A stretch of DNA of 63,256 nucleotides from Candidatus Aminicenantes bacterium. Lineage in GTDB: Bacteria; Acidobacteriota; Aminicenantia; JAMOAD01. Every line of letters begins with the position of its first letter. The stretch's first letter is position 1. The translations under genes and the position numbers were made by a program. Shown piece after piece: positions 30,602 to 48,731 of the stretch. Location of the stretch: positions 1 to 63,256 of the forward strand of contig JALVQI010000218.1 in NCBI GenBank assembly GCA_027031485.1. Direction: 5' to 3'. The notes under the pieces are model-generated. The model worked only from the letters and a program-made list of their open reading frames with translations. It was not told the origin of the DNA and did no database searches.

Positions 30602-32101
30602 ATGAAAGACAACCTATCTAAAAAGGTAATAAAAGGTGTAAAGTGGTCGTATTTAACCTCCTTTGTTAAATTTTTGTTAAACTTAGCTACTGTTTCCGTG
30701 CTTGCGCATCTTTTAAAGCCTGAAGACTTCGGAGTTATAGCGTTGAGTATAAGTCTTATTAATGTATTGTCAGCAATATCAAGTTTAGGAGTTGGCCCCA
30801 CAATAATTTATAATGAAAATATAAACGATAAGTTTATAAAAACATCTTTTGCATTAACTTTGTTTCTTGGTATATTTTTTTTTGTCATTCTCTATTTTAA
30901 TGCATCATTTTTTGCTTCTTTTTTCAAATTATATGATTTTGCAGATGTTATAAAAGTAATGAGTATATCTCTTATATTTATTAATATAAACAAAGTATCT
31001 TATTCGCTATTGAGAAAAAATTTAAAGTTTAAAAGTATAATGATTTCGCGTAATCTCTCCTATTTTGTTTCTTATACAATCATCGGAGTTGTATTTGCTT
31101 TGTTAGGATTCGGACTATGGGCATTGGTTTTTGCTTACATTATGGAAAAAATACTGTTTCTTTTGATTAATTATTATAATTTTAAATATCCGATTATTCC
31201 CATCATTTATAAAAAAGAATTAAAATTATTCTATAAATATGGTGGATGGATATCTGTTGACAGAATGCTCTCTGTTATTGCTAATGAAGGAGATTATTTT
31301 ATTGTCAGTAGAATATTCGGAGATAAAGTTCTTGGATTTTACGAACGTTCATTTAAATTGTCTAATATGATCCCCAACAATTTGCTTAATTCATTAGATA
31401 GAGTATTGTTTCCGACATTATCTATTATAAAAGATAAGTTAGAAAAATTAAAAACAACTTTTATCCACAGCTCAAATTTAATTATTATGATAGGATTACC
31501 AATATCAATTTTTACACTACTTACTTCTCCTGAAATTATTATTTTTCTGTTGGGCAACAAATGGAGTCCTGCTATTCCGATTTTCAGAATATTCTCAATA
31601 TTTATTTCTCTTAAAATGTTGATCCTTTTAATCAATTCATTGATAAAAGCTACAGGGTATGTTATCAAGAAAACAATATATACGGCATATTATGCACTCA
31701 TGGTTTTAACTTTCTCCTTAATCGGAAGCCATTGGGGAATAGAAGGAGCTTCTTTAGGCGTACTTTTAGCCATTTTCATTTATCTGGGATTTTTACTATA
31801 CCAGAGTCTTGAAATACTTGATATGACTTTTTTATCTTATTTAAAAGAAATATTTAATTCTATTTTATTTTCTCTGTTTTATTTGCTCACATTCATTACT
31901 ATGCTTTTTTTTATAAGACAATTGTTCCAAGTGTTATGGATGAGATTTGTTATACTTTTTTTAGTAGCTGTAGTCTTATATCCATTTTGTTTATATGTAT
32001 TTTTAAAAAAAATGGAGTTAAAGAGTTTTAAATGGATTTTGTTGAAATTAGATATAGAATTAATTTCTAAATTTAGCAAAATCTTTTTTAAGGTTGATTA
32101 A
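30602..32101 (+). CDS. Polysaccharide flippase, Wzx-like (MOP superfamily)
   Basis: A 499-aa polytopic membrane protein. The N-terminus KGVKWSYLTSFVKFLLNLATVSVLAHLLKPEDFGVIAL is typical of Polysacc_synt proteins. Confidence 0.75.
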   Translation: MKDNLSKKVIKGVKWSYLTSFVKFLLNLATVSVLAHLLKPEDFGVIALSISLINVLSAISSLGVGPTIIYNENINDKFIKTSFALTLFLGIFFFVILYFNASFFASFFKLYDFADVIKVMSISLIFININKVSYSLLRKNLKFKSIMISRNLSYFVSYTIIGVVFALLGFGLWALVFAYIMEKILFLLINYYNFKYPIIPIIYKKELKLFYKYGGWISVDRMLSVIANEGDYFIVSRIFGDKVLGFYERSFKLSNMIPNNLLNSLDRVLFPTLSIIKDKLEKLKTTFIHSSNLIIMIGLPISIFTLLTSPEIIIFLLGNKWSPAIPIFRIFSIFISLKMLILLINSLIKATGYVIKKTIYTAYYALMVLTFSLIGSHWGIEGASLGVLLAIFIYLGFLLYQSLEILDMTFLSYLKEIFNSILFSLFYLLTFITMLFFIRQLFQVLWMRFVILFLVAVVLYPFCLYVFLKKMELKSFKWILLKLDIELISKFSKIFFKVD

Positions 32102-32934
32102 TGTTACCGAATTATATAATTGCCGGGGCTCAAAAAGCTGGAACGACTACTGTTTTTAAGGTTATAAAGCAGCATCATGATGTTTTCGTTCCTAAAATTA
32201 AGGAAATTCATTTTTTTGATAGGACGGAAAATTTTAGAAGAGGTAAAAAATATTATCTAAAGTATTTTTTGGGTGGCAAAAACCAAAAGATTGTAATGGA
32301 TATAACTCCTAATTATATGTATGTAAAAGAAGTTCCAAAAAGGATTAAAGAAATATTGCCAGAGGTTAAATTAATATTTTTTTTAAGGGATCCTATTAAA
32401 AGAGCATATTCAAACTACTGGCATAATGTAAGATACCAAGCTGAAAAGTTAAGCTTTTCTGAAGCTATCAAAGTAAAAGGGAATCCATACATTATGAAAA
32501 GTATGTACTTTAAACATTTGGAAAGATTTTTGAAGTATTTTGATAAACAAGATATACTTATTTTTATTAGTGAGAGGATGTTTAATGATCCTTTGAGTTT
32601 TTATAAAAAATTTTTTTATTCTATTGGTATAAATTATTTAGATACAATAAATTACAATATAAAAGAAAATAGTGCGAGGGTCCCGAAATTTGTATTTCTT
32701 GAAAAAATTTTTTTCTCTGAAAAAATAGTTATTAGAAATGTTAGAAAGATGGTTCCAAGAAAAATAAAAGATATAATTAGAAAGTTGGATGAAAAGATTA
32801 ATATGAAACAGATAGATCTTCCCTCTTTGGGAAAAGAAATAAAAGAATTTTTAGTTGAGAAATTTAAACAAGATGTTTATAATTTAAAAAAAGAATTTTC
32901 CCTTGATTTAACAGATTGGAGAGATTTTAATTAA
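32101..32934 (+). CDS. Sulfotransferase (PAPS-dependent, Sulfotransfer_1-like)
   Basis: 5'-PSB motif IIAGAQKAGTTT and 3'-PB motif FLRDPIKRAYSNYWH. The start overlaps the wzx stop (TAATG). Confidence 0.75.
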   Translation: MLPNYIIAGAQKAGTTTVFKVIKQHHDVFVPKIKEIHFFDRTENFRRGKKYYLKYFLGGKNQKIVMDITPNYMYVKEVPKRIKEILPEVKLIFFLRDPIKRAYSNYWHNVRYQAEKLSFSEAIKVKGNPYIMKSMYFKHLERFLKYFDKQDILIFISERMFNDPLSFYKKFFYSIGINYLDTINYNIKENSARVPKFVFLEKIFFSEKIVIRNVRKMVPRKIKDIIRKLDEKINMKQIDLPSLGKEIKEFLVEKFKQDVYNLKKEFSLDLTDWRDFN

Positions 32935-33127
32935 TTATAGAAACAAATAAAAATGTTGTTTGAAACCAGAATTAAATAAAAAACCTTTATTCAAATATTA
33001 AAAATGGTTTAATTTTGCTAAGAAATATTTTTTTAAAGAGAGCCAGAGAAATTTATTGCTAAACAAATTCATTTAAATATTTAAATTTTAAGAAATCTGG
33101 CTTGAATTTATTATATGGAGAAAAGAA

Positions 33128-33943
33128 TTGAAACTATTAAAAGTATTTAAATTCATATTAAATGAAAAGTCAAACAAAGGAGAAAAAACAAAAAGATTGA
33201 TCTATGCGATTCTCTGGCAATTGTGGAAACGGATTGTGAGAAAACCAGTTGTTATAAAACTGGATAATGAAGCAAAATATATCTCTTTCCCGGATACTCC
33301 CATGGGCTCTTTTCCTATTTATGCAAAAATATATGATAGTGAAAAGATAATATTTTTAAGAAAATTCTTAAAAGAAAAAGGAATAATAATAGATATTGGT
33401 TCTAATATGGGAATATATGCTCTACTTTTAAAAGAGAAATATGAAAAAGTTATTCTTTTTGAACCTATAGATGAAACAGCGGATATCTGTGAAGCTAATA
33501 TGAAATTGAACGGAATAAATTATGAGATGTATAGAATTGCTCTTGGGAATAAAGTTGAAGAAGTTAATTTTGAATTTAAAGGGAACTTTGACACAACAGC
33601 GAAAGTGAAAAATGAAGGAGGAAATTATAAAGTTAAAATGGATAAATTGGATAATCTTATAAAAAAAGAAGATTATGGTAATTTGAAATTTATAAAAATT
33701 GATGTTGAAGGCTATGAGCTTGAGGTATTAAAAGGTGCGGGAAAAGTCATAAAAGAATCAGCTGTTAAACTTATCCAATTTGAAAGATTAAGAACCACTC
33801 CTATCGAACCTCTTTTAAAATTTTTCCAAGAAATTAATTGGTCAATATTTGCTCTTAATAATGGTAAAATTTCTTATAACAAGGAAGACATATATGAGGC
33901 TCATGATCTTTTTGCTGTTAAAAAAGATATTTTTAAAAAATAG
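33128..33943 (+). CDS. FkbM-family SAM-dependent methyltransferase
   Basis: IIDIGSNMGIYAL...LFEP...IKIDVEGYELEVLKGA. The TTG start follows a GGAG. Confidence 0.7.
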   Translation: MKLLKVFKFILNEKSNKGEKTKRLIYAILWQLWKRIVRKPVVIKLDNEAKYISFPDTPMGSFPIYAKIYDSEKIIFLRKFLKEKGIIIDIGSNMGIYALLLKEKYEKVILFEPIDETADICEANMKLNGINYEMYRIALGNKVEEVNFEFKGNFDTTAKVKNEGGNYKVKMDKLDNLIKKEDYGNLKFIKIDVEGYELEVLKGAGKVIKESAVKLIQFERLRTTPIEPLLKFFQEINWSIFALNNGKISYNKEDIYEAHDLFAVKKDIFKK

Positions 33944-34118
33944 ATAAATTAATATTTGTGAAACAGGAGAAAAGTTATTAATTAAAATGAGTTATAAAAG
34001 GTACAATAACCGGTGGGAGATGAAGAAAATATTGAAAAATCATAGCGTGAAAAAATGTAAACGATCTTGGTTGTTTTAAAATGAGTGTTGAAAAAATTTT
34101 AAAAAGCAGTATTTTATA

Positions 34119-35252
34119 ATGAATAAGCTCCTGATATTTCATGTAAACTCAAATTCTTATTATAAAAATATTGTTTTTAATTCACTTAAGGAAAAATATG
34201 GTAGCTTTAAAGTAATTTTTCTTTCTGAATCAAGAAAAAGTAGAAAGTGGAAACTTAATCACAAAGATTTGAAATTTCCCTTTAAAACACTGTTTAAAGG
34301 TGATCTTGAAGATGTTAATAAAGTTTCATTGATAAAAAGAGTTCTTAAAACATTAAGGGAAGAAAACCCTGATGTCCTCTATTTGGGAGGATATTCTCAA
34401 ATTGCTTATTGGAGCGCTTTGATATGGAGTAAGATAAAGAGAAAAAAAGTTATTCTTGAAATGGATTCAAATATATATAATCTCGGGAAGAAAACTTTTT
34501 ACAAAGAGTTTTTTAAAAAATTCTTTGTGAAAATGTGCGACTATGGAATAACATACGGAGAGTTAAGCAAAGAATATTTTATCAAACTTGGTATGCCTGA
34601 GGAAAAGATTGTAATTAAACCGAATGTAACGGACAATGAATTCTGGGAAAAGGAAACAGAAAAATATTCAAGAAAAAGGGATGAGATTATAAGAAAAGAG
34701 GGTTTTAAAAACAAAAATTTTATTTATGTCGGGAGATTTGCTCCGGAAAAGAATTTATTTTTTTTGTTGGATGCTTTTAAAGAAATTAAAAAAAGTAAAG
34801 AGGCTGAAGGGTGGGGACTTATTATGGTGGGAGATGGAAGTCAAAGAGAGGAGCTAATGAAATATGTTGAAAAAGAAAAAATTAAGGATGTATTTTTTAT
34901 TCCTTTCAAACAAAAGGAGGAACTGCCAAAATATTATGCAATAAGTGATGTTTTACTCTTGCCATCTTTAAGTGAAACATGGGGGATTGTGGTAAATGAG
35001 GCTATGGCATCGGGGTTAATCCCCCTTGTGTCAAAAAGATGCGGGGCAATTGATCTGCTGAAGCCTTGTAGAGAAGAATTTGTTTTTGATCCACTTAATC
35101 TCAATGATTTTATTGAAAAGATAAAAAGAGTTATGAATTTTCTTGAAAGAGATTTTCACAAAAATAAAATCGTAAAAAACATACATGAGTATACTACAGA
35201 TTATGCATCTAATAAGATGTTAGAATTGATAAGGAAAGTAAAAGCTAATTAA
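34119..35252 (+). CDS. Glycosyltransferase, GT4 (GT-B fold)
   Basis: FIYVGRFAPEKN and the SETWGIVVNEAMASGLIPLVS (E-x7-E) motifs. Confidence 0.8.
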   Translation: MNKLLIFHVNSNSYYKNIVFNSLKEKYGSFKVIFLSESRKSRKWKLNHKDLKFPFKTLFKGDLEDVNKVSLIKRVLKTLREENPDVLYLGGYSQIAYWSALIWSKIKRKKVILEMDSNIYNLGKKTFYKEFFKKFFVKMCDYGITYGELSKEYFIKLGMPEEKIVIKPNVTDNEFWEKETEKYSRKRDEIIRKEGFKNKNFIYVGRFAPEKNLFFLLDAFKEIKKSKEAEGWGLIMVGDGSQREELMKYVEKEKIKDVFFIPFKQKEELPKYYAISDVLLLPSLSETWGIVVNEAMASGLIPLVSKRCGAIDLLKPCREEFVFDPLNLNDFIEKIKRVMNFLERDFHKNKIVKNIHEYTTDYASNKMLELIRKVKAN

Positions 35253-35348
35253 AATATCTCGTGTTGAATATGCAAAATTATCTTAAGAATAGTGTTAAAT
35301 ATGAAATTGAAAAATTAATATAAACTTTTATTTGAGATTTTTTTCACA

Positions 35349-36860
35349 ATGAAATCAAACCTTAAATTAATTGTTAAAAACGCAGGATATAGTTTAAGTG
35401 GACAAGTGGGTGGAACATTGATTCGAACCGTGTATCATCTGCTAATTGCAAATCTCCTTGGAGCTACTTCTTACGGGCTATATAGCCTTGGGCTGAGTGT
35501 TTTAAATATTTTGGTTATAATATCTTTGTTTGGCCTTAATATGACAGTTGTGAAATTTATTCCTGAGTATAATACCAGGAAAGATTATGAAGGTGTAAGA
35601 GGGGTTGTAAGGTTTTCTCTGTTTTTTGTAAGCTGTTTAAGTCTTTTTCTTGGTATTTTGATGTTTATCTTTTCAAAAGATCTTGCAGTCCTTGTTTTTA
35701 AAAAACAGGACTTAACAATAATATTTAAGATATTTTCTGTTTCTCTTACTCTTAAATCATTGTTAATTCTTTTAACTTCCATATTCAGAGCATTCAAACG
35801 ATTAAAGTATTCAGCTTTAATCTCCGATATTGTTCAGCCTTTGAGTGCTTTTATTATTTTTCTTATTTTGTTTTATTTTAAATTTGGAATTTATGCAGCT
35901 GTTTATTCCTTTCTTTTTTCTCTTGGGATTGCTTTTGCCGTAGGGCTGCTTTTATTAAATTCAAAAATTGATGTTAAAGTTTTTAATTCTAAAGCAAGAA
36001 ATGAAGGTTTAAAGCTTTTAAAGTTTTCCATCCCAATAGTTTTTTTATATTTTACGATTAGACTTTTAAATAGAACTGATATTTTAATAATAGGATATTT
36101 TATGCAAACTAAATCAGTAGGTATTTATGCTTTTTGTTACAGAATTTCTTATTTGCTCTTCTTGTTTTGGTTTTCCTTTAATGCAATTTTTTCTCCTGTT
36201 CTGTCTTCTCTTTTTACGAAAAATAAAATAAAGGAGATTGACATAATGTTTAAAACCGTATCACGATGGGTTTTTACTTTAACTCTCCCCTTTGCTATCT
36301 TCCTGATAATAAACGCAGATTTAATATTAGGATTATTCAAAAGAGAGTATGAAGAAGGTGTTGGTGTATTAATAATATTTTCAATTATGTGGCTTCTATT
36401 ATCTTTTTTAGGCTCAATAGGGAATGTTTTAGTAATGGCAGGGAAAAGAGAAAAAGAGTTATATTTTTCAATTCCCATTGTTGTTGTAAATGTCATCTTG
36501 AATCTCTTGTTAATTCCGGTTTACGGTTTAAAAGGAGCAGCTTTTGCCACTATGATTTCAATAGTAGGTTTTAATTTCTTGAAAATGATTTATATTAAAA
36601 AGAAATTTGGGATTTATCCGATTGATAATAAATATAAAACGCCCATTATGGCATCTTTTATTCCAATTATTTTTTTAATATTTTTTAGAGAAATTTTCCA
36701 TAATACAAAAGGAACTCTATTGCTTGTTTTTTTTAATATTATTATAGAATTATTATTATTTGTATTATCTTTATTTTTATTAAAGTTGCCTGAAGAAGAT
36801 TCATATATTTTTTCAGAAATAAAGTCAAAATTAATTAAGGGAAGAAGCAATTGGGGATAA
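35349..36860 (+). CDS. Second Wzx-like flippase / polysaccharide biosynthesis protein (MOP superfamily)
   Basis: A 503-aa polytopic protein. The N-terminus NAGYSLSGQVGGTLIRTVYHLLIANLLGATSYGLYSLGLSV is typical of the family. Confidence 0.7.
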   Translation: MKSNLKLIVKNAGYSLSGQVGGTLIRTVYHLLIANLLGATSYGLYSLGLSVLNILVIISLFGLNMTVVKFIPEYNTRKDYEGVRGVVRFSLFFVSCLSLFLGILMFIFSKDLAVLVFKKQDLTIIFKIFSVSLTLKSLLILLTSIFRAFKRLKYSALISDIVQPLSAFIIFLILFYFKFGIYAAVYSFLFSLGIAFAVGLLLLNSKIDVKVFNSKARNEGLKLLKFSIPIVFLYFTIRLLNRTDILIIGYFMQTKSVGIYAFCYRISYLLFLFWFSFNAIFSPVLSSLFTKNKIKEIDIMFKTVSRWVFTLTLPFAIFLIINADLILGLFKREYEEGVGVLIIFSIMWLLLSFLGSIGNVLVMAGKREKELYFSIPIVVVNVILNLLLIPVYGLKGAAFATMISIVGFNFLKMIYIKKKFGIYPIDNKYKTPIMASFIPIIFLIFFREIFHNTKGTLLLVFFNIIIELLLFVLSLFLLKLPEEDSYIFSEIKSKLIKGRSNWG

Positions 36861-36952
36861 TTTCTGTCTTATTACAAAAGGAATTTTATTAATGAGGAAT
36901 TTTTTATTAAACAAAATTACGATAATTTATATTGGGATTGGGTAGTGATGAA

Positions 36953-37708
36953 ATGAAAAATCTTACAGACAAAAAATTCTGGGATAAATTTTATTCAAAA
37001 AGAAATAATGAGAAGAAGCTTGGAGAACAATGGGGAGGTATAACGCAAGCTCATTTAAAAACTATATTCGATAAATATTTGTCCCGTGGTAACCTGGATT
37101 ACCTGGAAATGGGTTGCGGAAATTCAAGTTGGTTAATTTATTTTGCAAAATATTATAACTACAATGTTACAGGAGTTGATTATTCTCACAAAGGAATTGA
37201 ATATTTAAAACAAAGATTAAAACTTGAGGGTTTAAAAGCGGATCTGTATGAAGAAGATTTTTTTGAATTAAAAGATAAGTTGAAAAAAAAATTTGATATT
37301 GTTTCCTCTTTTGGAGTTATTGAGCATTTTGAAAAACCGTGTGAACCATTAAAACTTTTCTCTTTATTTCTAAAAAAAGATGGAATATTAGTAACAGGGA
37401 TTCCAAAATTAATAGGGATGCAGGGTTTTTTTCAGAAAATTTTGGATAAAGAAATATATTTAAAGCATAAACCCATGAGCTTAGAAGATATTATAGAAAA
37501 ACATAAAAAAGCGGGTTTGACTATCGTTGATAGTTTTGAAATAGGTTTTGGAACAATCGGTTTAAATCTGACTAATAGAAAGATACTTAAAAAGTTTTAT
37601 ATAATATACAGTAGCCTTTTAAATAAAGTTTTACGACGAATAAATTTCAAACTTATAGATAAATTAAAAATAGGGTCATATTATTTAATTCTTTCAAGGA
37701 TAGATTAA
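36953..37708 (+). CDS. Class I SAM-dependent methyltransferase
   Basis: YLEMGCGNSSW (motif I) and ...FDIVSSFGVIEHF. The first ATG in the ORF is at 36953, and the ORF opens at TTG 36932. Confidence 0.7.
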   Translation: MKNLTDKKFWDKFYSKRNNEKKLGEQWGGITQAHLKTIFDKYLSRGNLDYLEMGCGNSSWLIYFAKYYNYNVTGVDYSHKGIEYLKQRLKLEGLKADLYEEDFFELKDKLKKKFDIVSSFGVIEHFEKPCEPLKLFSLFLKKDGILVTGIPKLIGMQGFFQKILDKEIYLKHKPMSLEDIIEKHKKAGLTIVDSFEIGFGTIGLNLTNRKILKKFYIIYSSLLNKVLRRINFKLIDKLKIGSYYLILSRID

Positions 37709-37711
37709 AAT

Positions 37712-39601: not shown

Positions 39602-39649
39602 AAATTTAATAAAAAATGGAAATACATAAAAAGTGGTTGGTTTTTTGAA

Positions 39650-40930: not shown

Positions 40931-42032
40931 TATACTTTATATTATCCCCACTCTTGATGCCGGAGGAGCAGAGAGACAACTATCCTATATTATTAAAGGT
41001 CTAAAAAGGGAAAAATTCAGGGTATTTCTTTTTATCTTAAATGATTCTAAGCTTTTTCTTAAAAAAGAGATACCAGGAGATATAAATGTTTTTTTTAATA
41101 AAAACCATAAAAATATGCTTCAAATATTTAAGAAAGTCACAAAAATCATAAAAGATAATAATATTTTATTGATTCATTCTTTTCTTCCATTGGCTAATTT
41201 TTACGGAGCAATGGTGAAACTTATTTATTTTAGAAAAATTAAGTTAATTACATCTCAAAGAGGGTTACATAGAAAAATTTTTAACAGATGGACAATTTTC
41301 AATCTTTTTGCCCATAGAATCTCAGATGTAATTACTGTCAACTCGTACGCGGTTAAAGTAAATTGTATTAAATTTTTAAAAGTAAAACCAGGAAAGATAA
41401 GAGTAATTTATAATGGATTTAATGATATTTATAAAGAGCAGAATGGCTTTGATAAACTTAGTTTTAAAAAGGAGTTAGGATTGAAAGAATCTTTTCCCAT
41501 TATTCTAAGTGTAGGAAGATTTGACAAATTAAAAGGTCATCAGACTCTTTTAAAGATAGCTGAAAAAGTATTGGAGAAAAGAGAAGTATACTTTTTTTTC
41601 ATTGGTGAAGGCCTATTAAAAAGAAATTTACAAGAGTATGTAATAAGCAAAGGATTAGATAAATATATAAAATTTTTAGGAGAAAGAAATGATATAAGTA
41701 AGTTTTATTCAATTTCTGATATATTTGTATTACATACTTATTCCGAAGGTTTTTCGAATGTAATTTCAGAAGCTATGTTGTTTTCAAAACCTGTAATAAC
41801 AACAAATATAAGTGCCAATCAGGAAATAATTGATAATAATGTTAATGGTTTTTTAGTTGAAAAAGATGAAATAGACGAATTTGTTTTAAAAATATTTTCT
41901 CTTTTGGAGAATGATGATAAAAGAAAACAAATCGGTAAACTTGCCAGAGAAAAAATAATACAAAATTTTTCAATTGAAAAAATGATAAAATCTTATGAAA
42001 CTTTATATAAGGAGATAATAAAAAATGAATAA
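40917..42032 (+). CDS. Glycosyltransferase, GT4
   Basis: YIIPTLDAGGAERQ, ILSVGRFDKLKGH and SEGFSNVISEAMLFSKPVITT. It overlaps the upstream gene. Confidence 0.8.
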   Translation: MKKINILYIIPTLDAGGAERQLSYIIKGLKREKFRVFLFILNDSKLFLKKEIPGDINVFFNKNHKNMLQIFKKVTKIIKDNNILLIHSFLPLANFYGAMVKLIYFRKIKLITSQRGLHRKIFNRWTIFNLFAHRISDVITVNSYAVKVNCIKFLKVKPGKIRVIYNGFNDIYKEQNGFDKLSFKKELGLKESFPIILSVGRFDKLKGHQTLLKIAEKVLEKREVYFFFIGEGLLKRNLQEYVISKGLDKYIKFLGERNDISKFYSISDIFVLHTYSEGFSNVISEAMLFSKPVITTNISANQEIIDNNVNGFLVEKDEIDEFVLKIFSLLENDDKRKQIGKLAREKIIQNFSIEKMIKSYETLYKEIIKNE

Positions 42033-42825
42033 AATTTCATCTAAATTGAATTCTCTATTAAGATATGCCATGGTTTACGGATTATCAGGGTTTATCCCTT
42101 ACTATATTGTCACTGAATATCCTCGTTCCGGAGGTTCATGGCTTTCTAATATGATAGCTGATTATTTAGAAATTCCTTTTCCTGCAAGTAAATTTCCCCA
42201 TTTAAAGAAATCAGTTATTCACGGACATTATCTTTATAAAAAATCCATGAAAAATGTTATTTGTCTTGTTCGGGATGTAAGAGATGTCATTGTTTCGTAT
42301 TATTTTTTCTCTTTTTTTTATGCAAAAGAGAAAAATATTTCATTATATAATAAGATGAAGTCTTATATGAAATTTCAAGATTATGAAAGTATCGAAGACA
42401 ACCTTCCTTCATTTATTGAAAAATTGTTTCTTCTTAAAATTTATCCTCGCTTCAACTGGCAAGAATTTATCATCAGTTTTTACGGGAAAAAAAATATACT
42501 ATGGATTAAATACGAAGATTTATTGAGTAATACTTTTGACTCCATGTATAGTTTGTTAGGAAAATTGGATAAAAACGAGGTTGATAAAGATAAATTAATG
42601 AAAATAATTGAGAAATATACTTTTAAAAGGATGGTAAAAAATTATCAAACAGATGATCCTAAAAGTAGTTTCCTGAGAAAAGGAATAGCCGGGGATTGGA
42701 AAAATTATTTTAACAGAACAAGTGCTGAGATGATTGATTTTTATGCCGGAGAGGGCTTAAAACTAATGGGTTATGAAGAAAACAGAAACTGGATAGAGAA
42801 ATTTATAAAGGAGAAAGGAAAATGA
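42025..42825 (+). CDS. Sulfotransferase (cytosolic-SULT-like Sulfotransfer_1)
   Basis: EYPRSGGSWLSNMI (5'-PSB), LVRDVRDVIVSYYFF (3'-PB) and FLRKGIAGDWKNYF (the RKG..GDWKN hallmark). Confidence 0.8.
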   Translation: MNKISSKLNSLLRYAMVYGLSGFIPYYIVTEYPRSGGSWLSNMIADYLEIPFPASKFPHLKKSVIHGHYLYKKSMKNVICLVRDVRDVIVSYYFFSFFYAKEKNISLYNKMKSYMKFQDYESIEDNLPSFIEKLFLLKIYPRFNWQEFIISFYGKKNILWIKYEDLLSNTFDSMYSLLGKLDKNEVDKDKLMKIIEKYTFKRMVKNYQTDDPKSSFLRKGIAGDWKNYFNRTSAEMIDFYAGEGLKLMGYEENRNWIEKFIKEKGK

Positions 42826-43013: not shown

Positions 43014-44144
43014 ATGAAAATTATTAACATAGTTCTCGACGGAAGAATTGCAGGCCCTCAGCTTAGAATTGCTGATGTTGCCAGAAGGTTAAAAGGGGAT
43101 GGGATTGAAACAATAGTCGTCTTTCCCGAAAGAGAATCTGATAAATTCAGAAAACTTTTGGATAGTTATCAAATAGAATATAAAACTTTGAATTTAAATA
43201 AATTATCAAAAAACCCTTTCGGGTTAATCAAATGGTTTATTTCATTTATCCCACAAACAATAAAATTGATTAAATTATTTAATAAGATAAATCCAGATAT
43301 TGTTCACTGCAATGCCTCATGGCAGTGGAAAGGGGTTATTGCGGCGAAACTCGCCGGTAAAAAAATTGTGTGGCACTTAAATGATTCTAAAATGTCATTT
43401 TTAGTTTTGCTTGGCTTTAAATTTTTAAACAAATTTGCGGAGGGTTTTATTTTTGCCGGTAAAAGGGTTAAAAAGTATTACTTAAATTATATTAAAGAAA
43501 AAAAAATAGGAAAGATAATCCACGCACCGGTTGATACAACACAATATGATCCTGAAAAAGATATTAGTCCTTCTTTTTTGAAAGATGAAAAAGGAGTAAA
43601 AATTATTACAGTTGCTAATGTAAATCCTCTTAAAGGTATTGAGTATTTTGTTGAATCAGCATCTTTTTTAAGCAACAAATATGATAATTTACGATTTTAT
43701 GTTTTTGGAGGCTTATTTAAATCTCAAAATAAGTATATTAAGTATATTAAAAAACTAATTGAAAAATATAAGCTTGATAATTTTTTTCTGTATGGGTTTT
43801 GTGAAAACATTGCTTCAGTGTTAAAGGATTCAGATATATATGTTTGCTCTTCGATAACTGAGGCTGCTCCCATGTCTGTATGGGAAGCTATGGCAATGGA
43901 AAAACCGATTGTTTCAACAGATGTAGGTTCGGTCTCTGATTTCATACAAAACGGAGAAAACGGTTTTATAGTTCCTGTAAAAGCTCCCGAGAAATTGGCT
44001 GAAAAAATTGAGCTGCTAATAAAAGACAAAGAACTCAGAAAGAAATTTTCTAAAAGAGTTAGAGAAGTTGCTGTTGAAAAGCTTGATATTAAAATTTGTG
44101 CAGAAAAGCATAAAGAATTTTACAATTTGATGAAAGGAAGATGA
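43014..44144 (+). CDS. Glycosyltransferase, GT4
   Basis: TVANVNPLKGIEY and SITEAAPMSVWEAMAMEKPIVSTDVGS. Confidence 0.8.
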   Translation: MKIINIVLDGRIAGPQLRIADVARRLKGDGIETIVVFPERESDKFRKLLDSYQIEYKTLNLNKLSKNPFGLIKWFISFIPQTIKLIKLFNKINPDIVHCNASWQWKGVIAAKLAGKKIVWHLNDSKMSFLVLLGFKFLNKFAEGFIFAGKRVKKYYLNYIKEKKIGKIIHAPVDTTQYDPEKDISPSFLKDEKGVKIITVANVNPLKGIEYFVESASFLSNKYDNLRFYVFGGLFKSQNKYIKYIKKLIEKYKLDNFFLYGFCENIASVLKDSDIYVCSSITEAAPMSVWEAMAMEKPIVSTDVGSVSDFIQNGENGFIVPVKAPEKLAEKIELLIKDKELRKKFSKRVREVAVEKLDIKICAEKHKEFYNLMKGR

Positions 44145-44905
44145 AAATTAGCATTATCACTGTTGTTTATAATGATGTAAATTATATTAAAGAAACAATT
44201 TTAAGTGTTTTAAATCAAAGCTATAAAAATGTGGAATATCTTATAATAGACGGGGGTTCAACTGATGGCACTCTGAAAGAGATAAATAAATATAAAAAGA
44301 AAATTTTTAAAATTATTTCTGAAAAGGATAATGGGATATATGATGCTATGAACAAGGGAATAAAATTATCAACAGGAGATATAATAGGCTTTTTGAATAG
44401 CGGGGATTTGTATTTTGATTCCTATGTTCTGGGAAAAGTGGTAAGAGAATTCAAGAAGAGAAATGTTGATAGTGTTTATGGGGATTTAGTATATGTAAAA
44501 GAAAAGAATGTTAATAAAATTATAAGGTACTGGAAAGCAGGGAATTATGAATGGGGATTATTTAAGAAGGGGTGGCATCCTCCGCATCCGGCTTTTTTTG
44601 TCAGAAAAGATATTTATAAGAAATGTGGATATTTTGATCTGGAATTTAAAATATCCGCTGATTTTGAAATAATGCTGAGATTTTTGGAAAAATGTAAAAT
44701 ATCAACATCTTATATACCGGAGGTGTTGGTAAAAATGAGATACGGGGGAGTAAGTAATAACAGTTTATTAAATATCTTAAAAGCTAATTATGAATGTTAT
44801 AGAGCATGGAGAAAAAATGGATTCAAAATTAATTTTATCACTGTTTTAAGAAAACCGATAAGGAAGATTGTACAATTTGCAATAAAAAAAAGGAACTCTT
44901 ATTGA
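44141..44905 (+). CDS. Glycosyltransferase, GT2
   Basis: ISIITVVYNDVNYIKETILSVLNQSY.NVEYLIIDGGSTDGT. There is an ATGA overlap with the upstream gene. Confidence 0.8.
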   Translation: MKISIITVVYNDVNYIKETILSVLNQSYKNVEYLIIDGGSTDGTLKEINKYKKKIFKIISEKDNGIYDAMNKGIKLSTGDIIGFLNSGDLYFDSYVLGKVVREFKKRNVDSVYGDLVYVKEKNVNKIIRYWKAGNYEWGLFKKGWHPPHPAFFVRKDIYKKCGYFDLEFKISADFEIMLRFLEKCKISTSYIPEVLVKMRYGGVSNNSLLNILKANYECYRAWRKNGFKINFITVLRKPIRKIVQFAIKKRNSY

Positions 44906-44975: not shown

Positions 44976-46079
44976 TTGATTGTTTATTTATGCCTTAGTT
45001 TTTTAATTGCTTTTCTGATTTCATATTATTTCCAGGGTAAAATAATTTCTTTCTTAAATCAAAGAAATATTGTTGATAGAGTTGATGAGAGAAAATTAAG
45101 GAAACCTCCTAAACCACGAATGGGAGGAATCGGACTTTTCTTAGGTTTTGTTATCGGAGTTTATGTTACACTCTTTATTTTTGCAAATATATATATAAAA
45201 CCGAATTTTATTAATTTTAATTTTGAATCTTTAAATTTATTTTTCCTATCGGTTTTTATAGTTTTTTTGATAGGTCTTATCGATGATGTAATAGGATTAA
45301 ATGCTTTTCAAAAACTTCCTTTTGAGATTCTTGCCGGAACAATTATGTATTTCAACGGATGGTTAATAAAATTTATTTCTCTTCCTTTTCCTCCCTATAA
45401 TTTGGTTTTAAATGATTTTATCTCATACTTGGTAACTGTCTTATGGATAGTGGGGATAACAAATGCATTAAATTTAATTGACGGGATAGATGGTCTTGCA
45501 GGTGGAATAACCTTTTTTTCCTTAATCTCTTTTGCTACAATAGAAATAATATTAGGAAAACCTGAATATCTTATACTAATTATTCCTATGGTTGGAGCAG
45601 TGTTGGGTTTTCTGAAATATAATCTTTTCCCCGCGAAAATTTATCTCGGGGATTCCGGAAGTTTAACAATAGGTTTTTTTCTTTCAATATTATCATTAAA
45701 AATTTCAATAAAAGCTTCATTTGGTATATCTTTTTTAATACCAATAGTAATCTTGTTTATTCCTATTTTTGATACTACTTTAGCTTTTTTCAGAAGATTA
45801 ATTAAGGGTAAAAACCCTTTTTCAGCTGACAATGAGCATATACATCATAAATTACTAAAAAAAGGATATAGTGAAAAAAAAGTATTTATTATTTTAATGA
45901 TTTTGGACTTTATCTTTTCTGCGTTGGGAGTGTTATCTATATTTGTAAAAAAACAATTTAGAATATCCTTTTTACTTATACTATTAGTTATCTCTTTTTT
46001 TATGATAGTTTATCTTAAATATGTAGATCTTAATTTTATTAAAAGAGGTCTGTCTAAGAATAGGAAAACTTATGATTAA
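44976..46079 (+). CDS. Polyprenyl-phosphate HexNAc-1-phosphate transferase (WecA/MraY family initiating enzyme)
   Basis: Motifs LIGLIDDV, NALNLIDGIDGLAGG and YLGDSGSL. Polytopic membrane protein. Confidence 0.8.
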   Translation: MIVYLCLSFLIAFLISYYFQGKIISFLNQRNIVDRVDERKLRKPPKPRMGGIGLFLGFVIGVYVTLFIFANIYIKPNFINFNFESLNLFFLSVFIVFLIGLIDDVIGLNAFQKLPFEILAGTIMYFNGWLIKFISLPFPPYNLVLNDFISYLVTVLWIVGITNALNLIDGIDGLAGGITFFSLISFATIEIILGKPEYLILIIPMVGAVLGFLKYNLFPAKIYLGDSGSLTIGFFLSILSLKISIKASFGISFLIPIVILFIPIFDTTLAFFRRLIKGKNPFSADNEHIHHKLLKKGYSEKKVFIILMILDFIFSALGVLSIFVKKQFRISFLLILLVISFFMIVYLKYVDLNFIKRGLSKNRKTYD

Positions 46080-46118
46080 TTACCTTAAATAGATATTTTA
46101 AGAGTTAAAAAAGTTATT

Positions 46119-46805
46119 ATGAAGTTATTTAAAAACCAAAAAGGTTACTTTGATTATTATTTTAATTATTTGAAAAAAATAGATAAAAAGAAAAATAAAA
46201 TCTTACACATAGGTTCAGGTTGGGATAAAAGAAAAATTAATGAAAAGATAAAAAATGCTAAAATTTTTAGCCTTGACATTGATTTTGAAGCTACTAAGAA
46301 AAATAATAATATTTTAAAAATCAATGCCAATGCGGAAAAAATGCCTTTCAAAGCAAGAACATTTGATTTCATTATTTGTGAAGAATTGATGGAACATGTT
46401 AAGTATCCTGATAAATTATTGAATGAAGTGTTTTATATTTTAAAGGAAAAAGGAGAGTTTATCGTAGTGACCCCTAATGGCTGGTCATACATAGCAATAC
46501 TTTCCAAATTGACTCCCTTGTGGTTTCACAAATATTATAACAAGTTACGAGGAATTGAGATTACTGATGTATATAAAACATACTATAAATTCAATTCTAT
46601 TTATAGAATAAAAAAATATTCAGAGAAGTTTAATTATACGCTAAAGGAATTAAAAATAGTAACAGGAACCGCTTCATATTTTAGTTTTATTAAACCTATT
46701 TACTATTTTGTATCCTTTTTACATTTTATATTATCAAAAGTAGGTTTTTTAAATAGACTTTTTGGAATTAATTTTTTTTTGTGCTTAAAAAAATTGACAA
46801 AATAA
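46119..46805 (+). CDS. Class I SAM-dependent methyltransferase
   Basis: ILHIGSGWD...NAEKMPF...FDFIICEELMEHV. Confidence 0.65.
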   Translation: MKLFKNQKGYFDYYFNYLKKIDKKKNKILHIGSGWDKRKINEKIKNAKIFSLDIDFEATKKNNNILKINANAEKMPFKARTFDFIICEELMEHVKYPDKLLNEVFYILKEKGEFIVVTPNGWSYIAILSKLTPLWFHKYYNKLRGIEITDVYKTYYKFNSIYRIKKYSEKFNYTLKELKIVTGTASYFSFIKPIYYFVSFLHFILSKVGFLNRLFGINFFLCLKKLTK

Positions 46806-46898
46806 GGGATATAAATATATAAATAAAAAAAGTGTATATTTATATTAATTTCTTATTATGATAAAATAAACTTAATCCTAAAATAGGAGTAATTATAT

Positions 46899-48365
46899 AT
46901 GACAGAGCATAATGCAAATAACACCTGCTGGAATTGCCCGCTGTTTGAATTTAAGGGTGGTGTTGATTTCAGAGCCTGCGGACAGAGCGCGGGGGAAGTT
47001 GAAGAGGGTTTTAATTTAGGTTCATGTAAGAGAAGACCTGAACTTGGTTTTTTTGACCCTTCATCAATAACTTTTGAAGAATGTCCTGAATGGGAAAAAT
47101 CCGAGTATGGTTATAAGTTAAAAAAGATGAAAGTTATGATCCTCGGTATAGACGGATACCTCGGATGGAGTCTTGCTCTTTGGCTTGGCAGTCTTGGATA
47201 CGAAATAAGCGGAATAGATAATTATAGCAGAAGAAATTGGGTTAAAGAAAAGGGCTCACACACTATAGTGCCTATTGCTCGTATGACACAGAGATTAAAA
47301 AAAGCAAAAAATATACTTGGAATTCATATAAATTTCAGGGAGATAGATCTTTTAGACAGAAACAAGTTCAGAGAGTTTCTTGAAGAGGTTAAACCCGATG
47401 CTATTGTTCACTATGCTGAAAATCCTTCCGCCCCATACAGTATGGTAGATGATGACCATGCTGTTTTTGTTCAGACTAACAATGTGATGGGGACTTTGAG
47501 ATTATTGTTTGCGATGAGAGATATAGTTCCCAATGCTTCTTTAATTAAATTAGGGACAATGGGAGAATACGGGACTCCACTTACCGGCAGGCCTATTTTT
47601 GAAGGGCTTTTTCCTGCGGATGCTGTTTTAAAATGGGGTGAAAGGGAGTGGAGTCTGGGAGGTGAGCTTACTCCGAGAGATCCTGTAAGCTTTTATCATG
47701 TATCAAAGGTTCAGGACACCTTTAATGTTTATGAGGCATGTAAATACTGGTGGCTAAGATCTTACGATATAATGCAGGGTGTTATATACGGAGTTCATAT
47801 CCCTGCCTTTGATGAAGATGATAATTTGAGAACAAGGTTTGATGTTGATGAATGGTTCGGAACAGCAATAAACAGATTTGTTGCTCAAGCAGTCGTAGGT
47901 ATCCCTTTGACTATCTATGGCTCGGGACATCAAAAGAGAGGATTTTTGGCGCTTTCGGATGCAATGCAGTGCATGACAAGACTTATAAATAATCCTCCAC
48001 CACCGGGAGTATATGATGTTGTAAATCAGTTATCCGGAGTTTATTCTTTAATGGATCTTGCAAAAACTGTTGCAAGAATCGGAAGAGATGAGTTTGGTCT
48101 TGATACAAAAATACAGAGGCTTGAAAATCCGAGAGTGGAAGCTGATGAGCATCCTTATGAGGTTATATACAAAAACTTACCTGATAGGTTCGGCTTTAAA
48201 CCCAGAGTTACCCTTGAAGAGGAAATATACAGAATGTTTAAACTTTTGACAAAACCTCATATTAAATCAAGAATTGAAGAAAAAAAACATGTTATTTTAC
48301 CTAAAACACACTGGTCGGGAGAAAAGAGAGAAGCAAAGGTAATAGAAGTTATTGATAAATTTTAA
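46899..48365 (+). CDS. UDP-sulfoquinovose synthase homologue (SQD1/SqdB/Agl3 family SDR) with a 76-aa Cys-rich N-terminal extension
   Basis: From M77 it is colinear with SQD1: ILGIDGYLGW, ENPSAPYSM, KLGTMGEYGTP, FYHVSKV, FGTAINRF, NPRVEADEH. An AGGAG SD lies 9 nt before the ATG at 46899, and there is none before the internal ATG at 47127. Confidence 0.8.
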   Translation: MTEHNANNTCWNCPLFEFKGGVDFRACGQSAGEVEEGFNLGSCKRRPELGFFDPSSITFEECPEWEKSEYGYKLKKMKVMILGIDGYLGWSLALWLGSLGYEISGIDNYSRRNWVKEKGSHTIVPIARMTQRLKKAKNILGIHINFREIDLLDRNKFREFLEEVKPDAIVHYAENPSAPYSMVDDDHAVFVQTNNVMGTLRLLFAMRDIVPNASLIKLGTMGEYGTPLTGRPIFEGLFPADAVLKWGEREWSLGGELTPRDPVSFYHVSKVQDTFNVYEACKYWWLRSYDIMQGVIYGVHIPAFDEDDNLRTRFDVDEWFGTAINRFVAQAVVGIPLTIYGSGHQKRGFLALSDAMQCMTRLINNPPPPGVYDVVNQLSGVYSLMDLAKTVARIGRDEFGLDTKIQRLENPRVEADEHPYEVIYKNLPDRFGFKPRVTLEEEIYRMFKLLTKPHIKSRIEEKKHVILPKTHWSGEKREAKVIEVIDKF

Positions 48366-48380
48366 TTATAAAGTATAAAA

Positions 48381-48731
48381 ATGTGGGATTTAAAAGCTGT
48401 TGATGAAAAAGAGTTTTATGAGAAAGTGTTAAATTGCAAAAAGCCTGTTTTCATAGATTTCTGGGCTGTTTGGTGTCCTCCGTGCAGGATGATGGAGCCT
48501 CTTTTAAATGACATTATGAATATGTATAAAGATAGAGTTGAATTTATTAAGGTCAATGTTGACATAAATAAGAAGATTGCAAAAGATTATGATATTCAGG
48601 GAGTTCCCTCCTATATGATAATAAAAGGAAAGAAAAAAATTAAAGAGATTATCGGAGCTTCATCAAAAAAACAGCTTGCTGACCTGATTGAAGAGGCAAT
48701 TGAGATAATTAATAATGATAGGGAAGAATAA
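48381..48731 (+). CDS. Thioredoxin (CPPC active site)
   Basis: FWAVWCPPCRMMEP...GVPSYMI thioredoxin fold signature. Confidence 0.8.
   Translation: MWDLKAVDEKEFYEKVLNCKKPVFIDFWAVWCPPCRMMEPLLNDIMNMYKDRVEFIKVNVDINKKIAKDYDIQGVPSYMIIKGKKKIKEIIGASSKKQLADLIEEAIEIINNDREE

Follow-up and report, generated by a model that had tools for sequence, protein, structure and literature searches.

What does a bacterial glycan locus make when it carries both a UDP-sulfoquinovose synthase homologue and sulfotransferases, and where would its sulfur come from? The question is raised by a window of 63,256 nucleotides (the whole stretch of DNA analysed) from the MAG of an uncultured sediment bacterium, Candidatus Aminicenantes. 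The first-pass annotation proposed that positions 32101-48731 direct the synthesis of a glycan bearing both sulfonate groups and O-sulfate esters. Our own reading, to which we give a probability of about 0.45 as a whole, is that a conserved gene cassette makes sulfoquinovose from activated sulfate and that the glycan of this strain carries sulfonate as well as sulfate groups.

A surface-polysaccharide locus with a constant core

The region 29290-55769, with all genes on the + strand, is a Wzx/Wzy-dependent surface-polysaccharide locus. Its left flank is an SDR epimerase/dehydratase (29290..30303; Pfam Epimerase, 186.9 bits) that occupies the same position in two Aminicenantes relatives, G044 and G046, with 78–80 % identity. 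Wzx-type flippase 1 (30602..32101; Polysacc_synt_3, 211.9 bits) lies in the variable region. Besides two sulfotransferases, discussed below, the genes between this flippase and the synthase encode an FkbM-family methyltransferase (33128..33943; Methyltransf_21, 47.6 bits), three GT4 glycosyltransferases (34119..35252, 40911..42032 and 43014..44144; Glycos_transf_1, 115.5, 127 and 129 bits), a second Wzx-type flippase (35349..36860; Polysacc_synt, 86.9 bits), two SAM-dependent methyltransferases (36932..37708, Methyltransf_31, 59.1 bits; 46119..46805, Methyltransf_11, 45.5 bits), an AsnB-like glutamine amidotransferase of the EPS type (37712..39601; Asn_synthase, 296 bits; TIGR03108, 544.6 bits, below its cut-off), a polytopic polymerase of the Wzy/O-antigen-ligase family (39650..40930; Wzy_C, 49.5 bits), a GT2 glycosyltransferase (44141..44905; Glycos_transf_2, 99.8 bits) and a WecA/MraY-family initiating phosphoglycosyl transferase with about 10 TM helices (44976..46079; Glycos_transf_4, 129.9 bits; TIGR02380, 127 bits, below its cut-off). 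The locus closes with a Wzz/PCP-like chain-length regulator that has one TM helix at either terminus (54612..55769; Wzz, 26 bits, cut-off 25.5). The tally of neighbours is two Wzx, a Wzy_C protein, a WecA-like GT4, three GT4, two GT2 and a weak Wzz-type protein. These are the neighbours named in the first-pass annotation and, as it also stated, no SqdX/SqdD-like gene lies within the locus.

The constant core of the locus, a cassette of five closely spaced genes (46899-51612), encodes, in this order, a long-form SQD1-like synthase, a thioredoxin, a DPM1/ArnC-like GT2, a GalE-like epimerase and an AlkP-superfamily enzyme of the NPP/PhnA branch, with intergenic spacings of +15, -17, -4 and +7 nt. 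It is 72–94 % identical to the cassettes of the two relatives. To its right, a GDP-L-fucose synthase (Fcl) homologue (51653..52714; NF047922, 467 bits, below the 500-bit cut-off) shares 78–83 % identity with theirs, and a polytopic membrane protein, ORF563 (52767..54458), shares 36–38 % with the counterpart at the same place. The latter has about 10–12 TM helices and a soluble C-terminal domain, found no match in a Pfam search and is a candidate GT-C-type transferase. Every feature of the first-pass annotation lies where it was placed, but the functional unit extends beyond the proposed end at 48731: it reaches at least 51612, the end of the AlkP gene, and probably 54458. Three cassette partners, namely the AlkP, GT2 and epimerase genes, had been missed.

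The arrangement AlkP-synthase-thioredoxin(-GT2-SDR) was found again in 19 long-form loci, from Chloroflexota, Thermodesulfobacteriota, Fibrobacterota, Planctomycetota and Omnitrophota among the bacteria to Asgard, Thermoplasmata, Bathyarchaeia and Woesearchaeota among the archaea. The AlkP gene adjoins that of the synthase in 16 of the 19 and the thioredoxin gene in 15. The GT2 directly follows the thioredoxin in 6/19 loci and lies near the synthase in two more (47–58 % identity), and an epimerase orthologue is found near the cassette in 4/19 (40–50 % identity). No published description of the cassette was found in the literature.

A cysteine-rich variant of the SQD1 family

The synthase (46899..48365; 488 aa) had been identified as a UDP-sulfoquinovose synthase homologue, and it is indeed a full-length homologue of SQD1. 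Residues 77-473 align with this enzyme (E 7e-82; PDB 1I24/1QRR), the hallmark motifs SAPYSM (177-182), KLGTMGEYGTP (217-227) and NPRVEADEH (410-418) are present, and SQD1 is the best fold match of the model (Foldseek TM 0.87 against 1QRR). In the phylogeny that the annotation had called for, the long forms make up a single clade (SH-aLRT 100), nested among SQD1/SqdB-like proteins and well apart from other SDRs. Of ten residues that mutagenesis has probed in Agl3 (PMC4388408), nine are kept (T220, M221, E223, Y224, S264, Y266, S269, K270 and H171). The tenth, the essential R101, is replaced by Pro176, and it is likewise Pro rather than Arg in 56 of 60 short-form relatives. Several features set the clade apart, and the earlier description did not capture them. 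The score against the NCBIfam UDP-sulfoquinovose synthase model NF041015 is 434 bits, below the equivalog cut-off of 575; the stem branch of the clade is long (1.07 changes per column); H272Q, T289Y and Y419P are fixed near the active site; and the lid over the active site (228-262) has been remodelled, with an insertion. Since the lid is modelled at low confidence as well, a nucleophile other than sulfite is conceivable. The score, Pro176 and the lid were counted against our reading. Judged by its sequence, the synthase belongs to a distinct long-form clade, neither ordinary SqdB nor ordinary Agl3, and most likely converts UDP-glucose to UDP-sulfoquinovose.

The annotation also made no mention of the first 76 residues (46899..47126), which form a separate conserved Cys-rich domain and make this protein an undescribed variant of a sulfo-sugar enzyme. 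An AGGAG Shine-Dalgarno sequence sits 8 nt upstream of the ATG. All five cysteines (C10, C13, C27, C43 and C62) are invariant across 121 homologues; the domain has no Pfam match, and a search of 1.84 billion cluster representatives gave only 37 hits. It is modelled with a pLDDT of 87–97, except for the C27 loop. The remaining four cysteines follow a CxxC...C...C pattern that is retained where C27 is missing. In L019, the C27 loop is absent, no thioredoxin adjoins the synthase and no AlkP homologue is detectable in the genome.

Partner genes and the source of sulfur

The cassette thioredoxin (48381..48731; TIGR01068, 100.1 bits, cut-off 96.8) has a WCPPC active site, as first noted, and across the cassettes this site is never WCGPC. 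The earlier suggestion that it serves sulfite or PAPS metabolism gains support from its adjacency to the synthase and from a facultative cassette partner that is new here, a small PAPS-binding protein of sulfotransferase fold with the P-loop GLPRSGTS. Its gene lies beside the cassette in 4/19 long-form loci vs 0/61 short-form loci, and strong orthologues occur in 11/19 long-form genomes vs 1/20 short-form genomes. In L023, this protein and the cassette thioredoxin form a single fused chain, and such fusions make up more than 110 protein clusters; they are present in 47 Planctomycetota species genomes, 43 of which have a long-form synthase within 8 kb. This fusion links the thioredoxin to PAPS. 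In L013, the gene order AlkP-synthase-Trx-GT2-Sat-DHH-CysC brings genes of sulfate activation into the cassette.

The MAG is 97.8 % complete with 5.8 % contamination on 245 contigs, so that the absence of a gene is not proof. The PAPS supply that the annotation had asked about is there (Sat, two CysC and a Sat-linked DHH gene), as is TrxR. CysH was not found in the genome (no hit to NF002537); the PF01507 matches are TtuA and TilS and were rejected. Neither AprA nor a sulfite reductase (NIR_SIR domain) was found. No canonical sulfite source was found in this genome, at its completeness of 97.8 %. CysH scores above the cut-off in 4/20 long-form genomes vs 12/22 short-form genomes, and the cassette is thus not strictly a CysH replacement.

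Because APS and PAPS can be made while CysH, AprA and sulfite reductase were not found, and because the thioredoxin is tied both to the Cys domain and to a PAPS-binding fusion partner, activated sulfate is the proposed sulfur source, used without the usual reductase. By the chemistry of SQD1 and Agl3, the synthase would oxidise C4 in an NAD-dependent step, dehydrate across C5 and C6 and add sulfur at the sulfite level to C6. The sulfo group may be carried thiol-bound on the Cys domain, C27 on its flexible loop being the best candidate, and be freed reductively by the thioredoxin as sulfite at the active site. Cys domain and thioredoxin together would then act as a modular stand-in for PAPS reductase. 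The AlkP enzyme (50329..51612; PF01663, 148 bits) is harder to place. D15, S54, D204, H208, D255, H256 and H394 are invariant, and the model (pLDDT 92.9) matches 1EI6, NPP1 and Xac NPP at a TM of about 0.6. NPP-type chemistry attacks phosphorus and would yield sulfate, not sulfite, from APS.

A rival explanation is an ordinary sulfite-dependent UDP-sulfoquinovose synthase, supplied from the anoxic environment or by an unrecognised reaction. The Cys domain would then bind zinc as a structural knuckle or work as a redox switch, and the thioredoxin would just keep it reduced or regulate activity; the AlkP would serve some separate step of glycan metabolism, for instance the processing of a phosphodiester or pyrophosphate. 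In favour of this explanation, the synthase shares its catalytic residues with SQD1 and Agl3, the four-cysteine pattern survives loss of C27 as a structural metal site would, CysH is found in some long-form genomes and the AlkP fold resembles that of phosphorus-attacking NPP and PhnA enzymes. We nevertheless regard this explanation as unlikely, at roughly one chance in four, since it does not account for thioredoxin and AlkP staying beside the synthase in both bacteria and archaea, for the fusion of thioredoxin with a PAPS-binding domain in 43 or more genomes that carry the cassette or for Sat-DHH-CysC joining the cassette in L013, and no recognisable sulfite source was found here.

Less probable again is that C6 receives another group (thiol, persulfide or thiosulfonate), or that another sugar nucleotide is used. 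The product would then be a sulfur sugar different from sulfoquinovose, and the thioredoxin would act to resolve an intermediate disulfide or persulfide. The divergent features of the clade would fit, and the need for a thioredoxin implies net redox chemistry that plain sulfite addition does not require. However, the residues for UDP-glucose binding and catalysis are preserved, ties to PAPS-binding proteins and Sat/CysC indicate oxidised rather than reduced sulfur, and no sulfide-transfer genes (rhodanese, ThiS/MoaD-like) were seen in the cassette.

Sulfotransferases and the fate of the sugar

Under the preferred reading, the small GT2 (48715..49347; Glycos_transf_2, 106 bits), a putative polyprenyl-phosphate sulfoquinovose synthase, probably loads the sugar onto polyprenyl phosphate. 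Its structural relatives are 5MLZ (E 5e-14) and ArnC (E 3e-10), and no TM helix is predicted. ORF563 would move sulfoquinovose from this carrier to the glycan. The next cassette gene encodes a GalE-type UDP-hexose 4-epimerase (49344..50321; 4ZRM, E 1e-65).

Both proteins annotated as PAPS-type sulfotransferases match Sulfotransfer_1, have intact PAPS motifs and are encoded among glycosyltransferase genes. SULT1 (32101..32934; 49.5 bits, cut-off 22) carries the 5'-PSB GAQKAGTT and the 3'-PB RDPIKRAYS; its nearest solved structures are 3RNL (E 2.7e-24) and heparan-sulfate 3-O-sulfotransferases such as 3BD9 (E 1.1e-21). SULT2 (42025..42825; 67.2 bits), with YPRSGGSW, RDVRDVIVSYY and RKGIAGDWKNYF, is closest to cytosolic SULTs (1Q1Z, E 1.5e-9). 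Neither has a predicted TM helix and both are cytoplasmic. They belong to the hypervariable part of the locus: orthologues are missing from the loci of G044 and G046, which keep the cassette, and in that of G044 no sulfotransferase was recognised. Their combination with the cassette is thus strain-specific. This lack of conservation was counted against our reading, as were the CysH genes of 4/20 genomes, the AlkP chemistry and the missing small partner: none accompanies the cassette at 46899-51612, and the single relative in the genome, on contig C229, is also present in cassette-less family members.

The SULTs, or one of them, might instead pass PAPS-derived sulfur to the cassette in place of that partner, or sulfate another acceptor, leaving a glycan that is sulfonated and not sulfated; the Arg-type P-loop of SULT2 does resemble that of the partner, but we think this improbable, at about one in ten, since neither shows more than a shared fold with the partner family (phmmer 10 and 2 bits), G044 has the cassette with no recognised sulfotransferase, SULT1 resembles carbohydrate O-sulfotransferases and both genes sit amid glycosyltransferase genes, an arrangement also seen in the synechan xss cluster (PMC8205485).

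A sulfonated and O-sulfated glycan is still the most economical reading, as first proposed, with the qualifications that the sulfonate product is putative, that no canonical sulfite source accompanies it and that the combination with sulfotransferases is specific to the strain. SULT1 and SULT2 would place O-sulfate esters on a repeat unit that the cassette supplies with sulfoquinovose and, if this is correct, the surface glycan of this bacterium would be both sulfonated and sulfated.

The synthase and its cysteine domain

The 488-residue protein encoded at 46899-48365, whose ATG is preceded by a good Shine-Dalgarno sequence, aligns to SQD1 over residues 77-473 (E 7e-82) and contains the motifs for which the first-pass annotation had called it a UDP-sulfoquinovose synthase homologue. 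SQD1 (1QRR) is also its best structural match in Foldseek (E 3e-36, TM 0.87), and the extended-SDR fold is accompanied by an NAD site of the GxxGxxG type, GIDGYLG, at residues 83-89. The catalytic signature [ST]MG...Yx3K is represented in SQD1 by T145, Y182 and K186 (PMC8987622). Its counterparts, T220-M221-G222 and Y266-x3-K270, are kept in all 20 long forms (those with the cysteine domain described below) and all 60 short forms (SqdB-like relatives without it), except that M221 is Leu in two long forms. In Agl3, alanine replacement of H95, R101, M145, E147, Y148, S180, Y182, T185 or K186 inactivates or impairs the enzyme (PMC4388408). Eight of these nine residues are kept in the synthase, as H171, M221, E223, Y224, S264, Y266, S269 (Thr in Agl3) and K270, while the essential Arg101 is Pro176, as in most prokaryotic relatives sampled. 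This proline was considered as a possible marker of long-form enzymes and rejected, since 56 of the 60 short forms have it as well and the position does not discriminate. In sum, fold, full-length alignment, GxxGxxG, TMGEYG, YxxxK and His171 are shared with SQD1, SqdB and Agl3.

The features that set the protein apart from all three are an additional 76-residue five-cysteine domain, a remodelled active-site lid (228-262) and its position in a clade of its own on a long stem. In the Cys-rich domain (residues 1-76), the cysteines C10, C13, C27, C43 and C62 show no variation across 121 homologues, whose full-length identity is 67-90%. Neither Pfam nor NCBIfam contains a match for it, and a search of 1.84 billion cluster representatives with the domain retrieved no more than 37 proteins, mostly fragments of the same family together with a few stand-alone proteins of about 80 residues. 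In a single case (locus L019) the segment bearing C27 is absent while the other four cysteines are kept; this locus has no adjacent thioredoxin, and no AlkP homologue is detectable in its genome. In the AlphaFold model of the synthase (pTM 0.85), the core and most of the cysteine domain are confidently predicted; the C27 loop and the lid are not. One long-form synthase of 845 residues, P0130, has an intein-like insertion of about 350 residues placed exactly between KLG and TMGE (...LIKLG|C...HN|TMGEFG...).

A quick maximum-likelihood tree was built from uncharacterised sequences, the 20 long and 60 short forms plus outgroups; two of the short forms (L035 and L046) come from unpublished genomes (G027 and G037), and no conclusion rests on them. 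The synthase nests inside the SqdB-like family and stands apart from other SDRs, the GalE/RmlB-like outgroups lying 7.2 changes per column away. All long forms fall into one clade (SH-aLRT 100, stem 1.07 changes per column), within which bacteria and archaea are intermixed. The changes fixed on this stem cluster in the lid, which also carries insertions, and include H272Q, T289Y, L361R and Y419P elsewhere. Among genome representatives, identity to the window's synthase is 61-69% for long forms and at most 51% for short forms. Hosts of the long form include Chloroflexota, Thermodesulfobacteriota, Fibrobacterota, Planctomycetota, Omnitrophota, Asgard archaea, Thermoplasmata, Bathyarchaeia and Woesearchaeota. 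Judged by its sequence, the protein is a putative UDP-sulfoquinovose synthase (EC 3.13.1.1) and a distinct variant of the SQD1/SqdB/Agl3 kind.

A constant cassette in a variable glycan locus

In the window the synthase is followed by a thioredoxin (48381-48731), a small GT2 (48715-49347), a GalE-like SDR (49344-50321) and an AlkP-superfamily enzyme (50329-51612), with gaps of +15, -17, -4 and +7 nt. A scan of 46000-52800 for promoters and terminators was uninformative in this AT-rich DNA (40 matches against 27 expected). An orthologue of the AlkP enzyme flanks the synthase in 16 of 19 long-form loci and a thioredoxin in 15; loci missing either flank lie mostly at contig ends, and the small GT2 and the SDR often come next in the cassette. 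No characterised member of the SQD1/SqdB/Agl3 family is linked to such a pair.

The thioredoxin scores 100.1 bits against TIGR01068 (cut-off 96.8) and has, around the CPPC reported in the first-pass annotation, the site WCPPC, not the canonical WCGPC. None of the cassette thioredoxins has WCGPC, there being no Gly at that position, and one has no resolving cysteine: in a Dehalococcoidaceae MAG (L009:2721-3068) the site reads WCVPS, and the protein would be monothiol. Other thioredoxins and a thioredoxin reductase are encoded elsewhere in the window's genome. The AlkP enzyme belongs to the type I phosphodiesterase/NPP family (PF01663, 148 bits, cut-off 23). Its D15, S54, D204, H208, D255, H256 and H394, which correspond to the two-metal ligands and the Ser54 nucleophile, are invariant in 13 orthologues, and the model (pLDDT 92.9) has the ligands, nucleophile and core fold of the NPP/PhnA branch of the superfamily. 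The nearest folds in Foldseek are phosphonoacetate hydrolase (1EI6), ENPP1 and Xac NPP (TM 0.57-0.67, 13-15% identity); a PDB sequence search gave no match, and the protein atlas labels the enzyme only as "AlkP superfamily phosphohydrolase or phosphomutase".

The closest solved relatives of the small GT2 are the Pyrococcus dolichol-P-mannose synthase and ArnC, whose catalytic domains it resembles. A polytopic protein with a soluble C-terminal domain, ORF563 (52767-54458), is kept beside the cassette in relatives. This arrangement recalls the DPMS/AglD, ArnC-ArnT and GtrB-GtrC systems. Unlike DPMS and ArnC, the GT2 has no transmembrane helix, and ORF563 has no match in Pfam, GT-C families included, or in NCBIfam. 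A GT-C-like role for ORF563 is a guess, and by analogy we infer that the two proteins might form a polyprenyl-phosphate sugar decoration system.

The glycan region as a whole is a single co-directional gene array. Searches of Pfam, NCBIfam and the PDB bore out the neighbours listed in the first-pass annotation: two Wzx, a Wzy_C protein, a WecA-like transferase, glycosyltransferases (five in the locus) and, weakly, a Wzz-type protein. Three methyltransferases and an AsnB-like amidotransferase are also present. The two predicted PAPS-type sulfotransferases were likewise found as described. SULT1 (32101-32934; PF00685, 49.5 bits, gathering cut-off 22) is a Sulfotransfer_1 protein with intact 5'-PSB (GAQKAGTT) and 3'-PB (RDPIKRAYS) motifs and likeness to heparan-sulfate 3-O-sulfotransferases. 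SULT2 (42025-42825; 67.2 bits) resembles cytosolic SULTs and carries YPRSGGSW, RDVRDVIVSYY and RKGIAGDWKNYF; its PAPS-site motifs, RKGIAGDWKN included, provide the P-loop and 3'-PB of a PAPS-dependent sulfotransferase. Neither protein has a transmembrane helix.

The RpoB of the window's genome shows 100% identity to the RpoB of a Candidatus Aminicenantes MAG. Among 60 relatives of the same class, the cysteine domain occurs in three of the five other genomes of the window's family and in none of the 55 elsewhere. Two of these relatives, G044 and G046, have a syntenic locus in which the flanks and the block from synthase through thioredoxin, GT2, SDR and AlkP to Fcl (51653-52714) are 72-94% identical. 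The central Wzx/glycosyltransferase/methyltransferase region differs and contains no orthologue of SULT1 or SULT2. In its place, the variable region of G046 has a Sulfotransfer_3 protein and a sulfatase-family protein (PF00884; L127:9953-11446, 497 residues), and that of G044 a sulfatase-family protein (PF00884; L125:5566-6975, 469 residues) for which, as for the other, the window has no counterpart. In the window, 30602-35252 (Wzx1-SULT1-FkbM-GT4a) is best matched by contig C107 of G044 and 35349-42032 (Wzx2-MT-AsnB-Wzy-GT4b) by contig C75 of G046. The variable middle (30602-42032) thus looks like a mosaic, and such an origin would explain the two Wzx genes.

This division bears on the proposal of a glycan that is both sulfonated and O-sulfated. 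Sulfoquinovose from the fixed cassette plus O-sulfate from the two locus sulfotransferases is still the most economical reading of the genes. The sulfotransferases are strain-variable, and the surface glycan would carry sulfoquinovose and, in this strain, O-sulfate esters.

Upstream, at least 13 tandem paralogous genes (922-29068, + strand) encode proteins of 365-880 residues that begin with Kre9_KNH/Big_7 Ig-like domains and often also contain CARDB; ten were tested and had no NCBIfam match. Paralogues also border the glycan locus in G044 and G046; such proteins may be located at the surface and might serve as targets of glycosylation. At the other end, the long + strand array closes with a XerC/D-type tyrosine recombinase (59252-60133), and at about 60 kb (59252-60133 / 60136-63256) both gene orientation and GC skew switch sign.

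Activated sulfate, thioredoxin and a proposed source of sulfite

The window's genome (97.8% complete, 5.8% contamination) encodes Sat (514 bits) and CysC (306 and 161 bits), in line with the PAPS requirement of the predicted sulfotransferases. It has no CysH: NF002537 finds no match, and TtuA and TilS account for the PF01507 matches (29 and 24 bits). Neither a NIR_SIR domain nor AprA is found in it either. PAPS can therefore be made, while nothing recognisable as a canonical source of sulfite is present. A gene of the DHH family overlaps Sat (L004:482-1474 on contig C90), with a weak Pfam score of 24.8 bits, below cut-off, and another directly follows Sat in a Thermoplasmata locus (L013:8814-9812; weak, 33 bits), a pairing that points to a pAp phosphatase acting in the turnover of PAPS.

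The long form is found mostly in anaerobes without CysH. That long-form genomes lack CysH as a rule was nevertheless rejected in favour of a trend: CysH scores above cut-off in 4/20 long-form against 12/22 short-form genomes (10/20 without the unpublished G027 and G037), and the completeness figure covers the window's genome. In four long-form Thermoplasmata genomes (G005, G006, G008, G016) there are open frames of 590-616 residues in which part of a PAPS-reductase-like domain is recognised at 62-78 bits, short of the cut-off; these could encode a sulfate-reduction or PP-loop enzyme of divergent type alongside the cassette.

A link between the cassette and PAPS comes from its facultative partner, a small protein of sulfotransferase fold. 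The Thermoplasmata locus L013 has the order AlkP, synthase, thioredoxin, GT2, Sat, DHH and CysC, followed by a convergent gene for a 191-residue sulfotransferase-fold protein whose orthologues carry GLPRSGTS, DNPxGYYExE and VIFMxR. An AbiEii/AbiEi toxin-antitoxin pair (L013:1837-3476) lies directly upstream of this cassette. A tblastn search of related loci with the window's sulfotransferases gave no match; phmmer with more queries placed a small sulfotransferase beside the cassette in 4/19 long-form loci versus 0/61 short-form loci (962 kb covered). Strong orthologues occur in 11/19 long-form genomes versus 1/20 short-form genomes. In the window's genome there is no cassette-linked small sulfotransferase. 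The sole relative, a 227-residue ORF on contig C229, was rejected as a cassette partner because each of the six family genomes has it, the two without the cassette included.

In locus L023 the small sulfotransferase and the cassette thioredoxin are fused into a single 343-residue protein. Both domains occur together in more than 110 clusters, with identities down to 52%, and all those named are from Planctomycetota. Among 47 species genomes with the fusion, a long-form synthase lies within 8 kb in 43, a detectable cysteine domain in 39 and an AlkP gene in 38; near stand-alone small sulfotransferases, a synthase was found in none of 33 loci. All fusion-bearing genomes found are MAGs, and the cultured Planctomycetes sampled have only the stand-alone form. 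In 13 of the 33 loci without a synthase (L184, L189 and 11 others, from Pirellulales and other groups), a distant AlkP-family homologue (23-27% identity to the window's AlkP enzyme) lies within a few kb, which hints that AlkP and the small sulfotransferase may be associated independently of the synthase.

The suggestion that the thioredoxin serves sulfite or PAPS metabolism gains support from its conservation beside the synthase and from the fusion, which ties it to PAPS. It would then be not incidental but part of the synthase's sulfur supply. In CysH chemistry activated sulfate is bound, a cysteine thiol takes the sulfo group, and thioredoxin gives two electrons with release of sulfite. We tentatively propose, at a probability of roughly 0.3, that the long-form cassette leads from activated sulfate to carbon-bound sulfonate independently of CysH, by similar chemistry spread over separate modules. 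Activated sulfate (PAPS or APS) would be bound by the small sulfotransferase-fold protein and/or the AlkP enzyme, the sulfo group would be put on a cysteine of the synthase's N-terminal domain, with C27 as the best candidate, and the dedicated thioredoxin would free sulfite right inside the active site, keeping toxic free sulfite from ever arising. The scheme does not account for the chemistry of the AlkP enzyme, since an NPP-type attack on APS would yield sulfate.

A plain sulfite-dependent synthase with a regulatory thioredoxin is a rather doubtful reading, though one to be taken seriously; set against it are the lack of a recognisable sulfite source and the thioredoxin-sulfotransferase fusion. 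That the sulfur product is something other than sulfoquinovose is unlikely: in its favour are a synthase score of 434.1 bits with NF041015, under the equivalog cut-off of 575, and the remodelled lid; against it is the conservation of the catalytic residues. That SULT1 and SULT2 serve the cassette and not the glycan is very unlikely, the same cassette being kept in G044, where no sulfotransferase was recognised in the locus.

Known systems and biological meaning

The likeness of the proposed relay to CysH with thioredoxin would be one of analogous chemistry, not of membership. A PAPS-binding module (in many lineages), a cysteine module and a dedicated thioredoxin are present; unlike CysH, the cassette has no PP-loop (PF01507) domain, its nucleotide-binding parts are of the sulfotransferase and/or AlkP fold, and sulfite would be used in place by the sugar synthase instead of being released for assimilation. 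In its glycan context the synthase resembles Agl3, whereas SQD1 and SqdB belong to a lipid context. The synechan (xss) locus of Synechocystis PCC 6803 is likewise of the Wzx/Wzy type, with PAPS sulfotransferase genes among the glycosyltransferases; the paper that describes it (PMC8205485) terms sulfated exopolysaccharides unique to cyanobacteria among bacteria. The window differs in its non-cyanobacterial anaerobic host, its two unrelated sulfotransferase types and the added sulfoquinovose-type cassette, and suggests that polysaccharides with this double sulfur modification and a strong negative charge also occur beyond the cyanobacteria.

Literature searches turned up no account of the long form or of its partners. 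To our knowledge, the sulfotransferase context of the window, the constant cassette beside variable sulfotransferases, the statistics of the thioredoxin-sulfotransferase fusion and the negative control provided by the C229 gene are new.

Sulfoquinovose is among the most abundant organosulfur compounds. The only routes to it known so far, through SQD1/SqdB for sulfolipid and Agl3 for the Sulfolobus N-glycan, require free sulfite. The locus is a member of a widespread, uncharacterised variant of its synthase that brings a cysteine domain, a thioredoxin and a metalloenzyme of its own, and the planctomycetal fusion offers a compact, testable system. If the proposed relay is true, it would answer where sulfite for sulfonate synthesis comes from in organisms without assimilatory sulfate reduction, and it would be the first S-sulfation by a protein of sulfotransferase or AlkP fold. 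Sulfoquinovose-bearing glycans would then extend to many uncultured bacterial and archaeal phyla, the sediment sulfur cycle would have a further source of sulfonate and sulfate-ester carbon, and sulfur would have a new entry point into the glycans of anaerobic bacteria and archaea, Asgard included.
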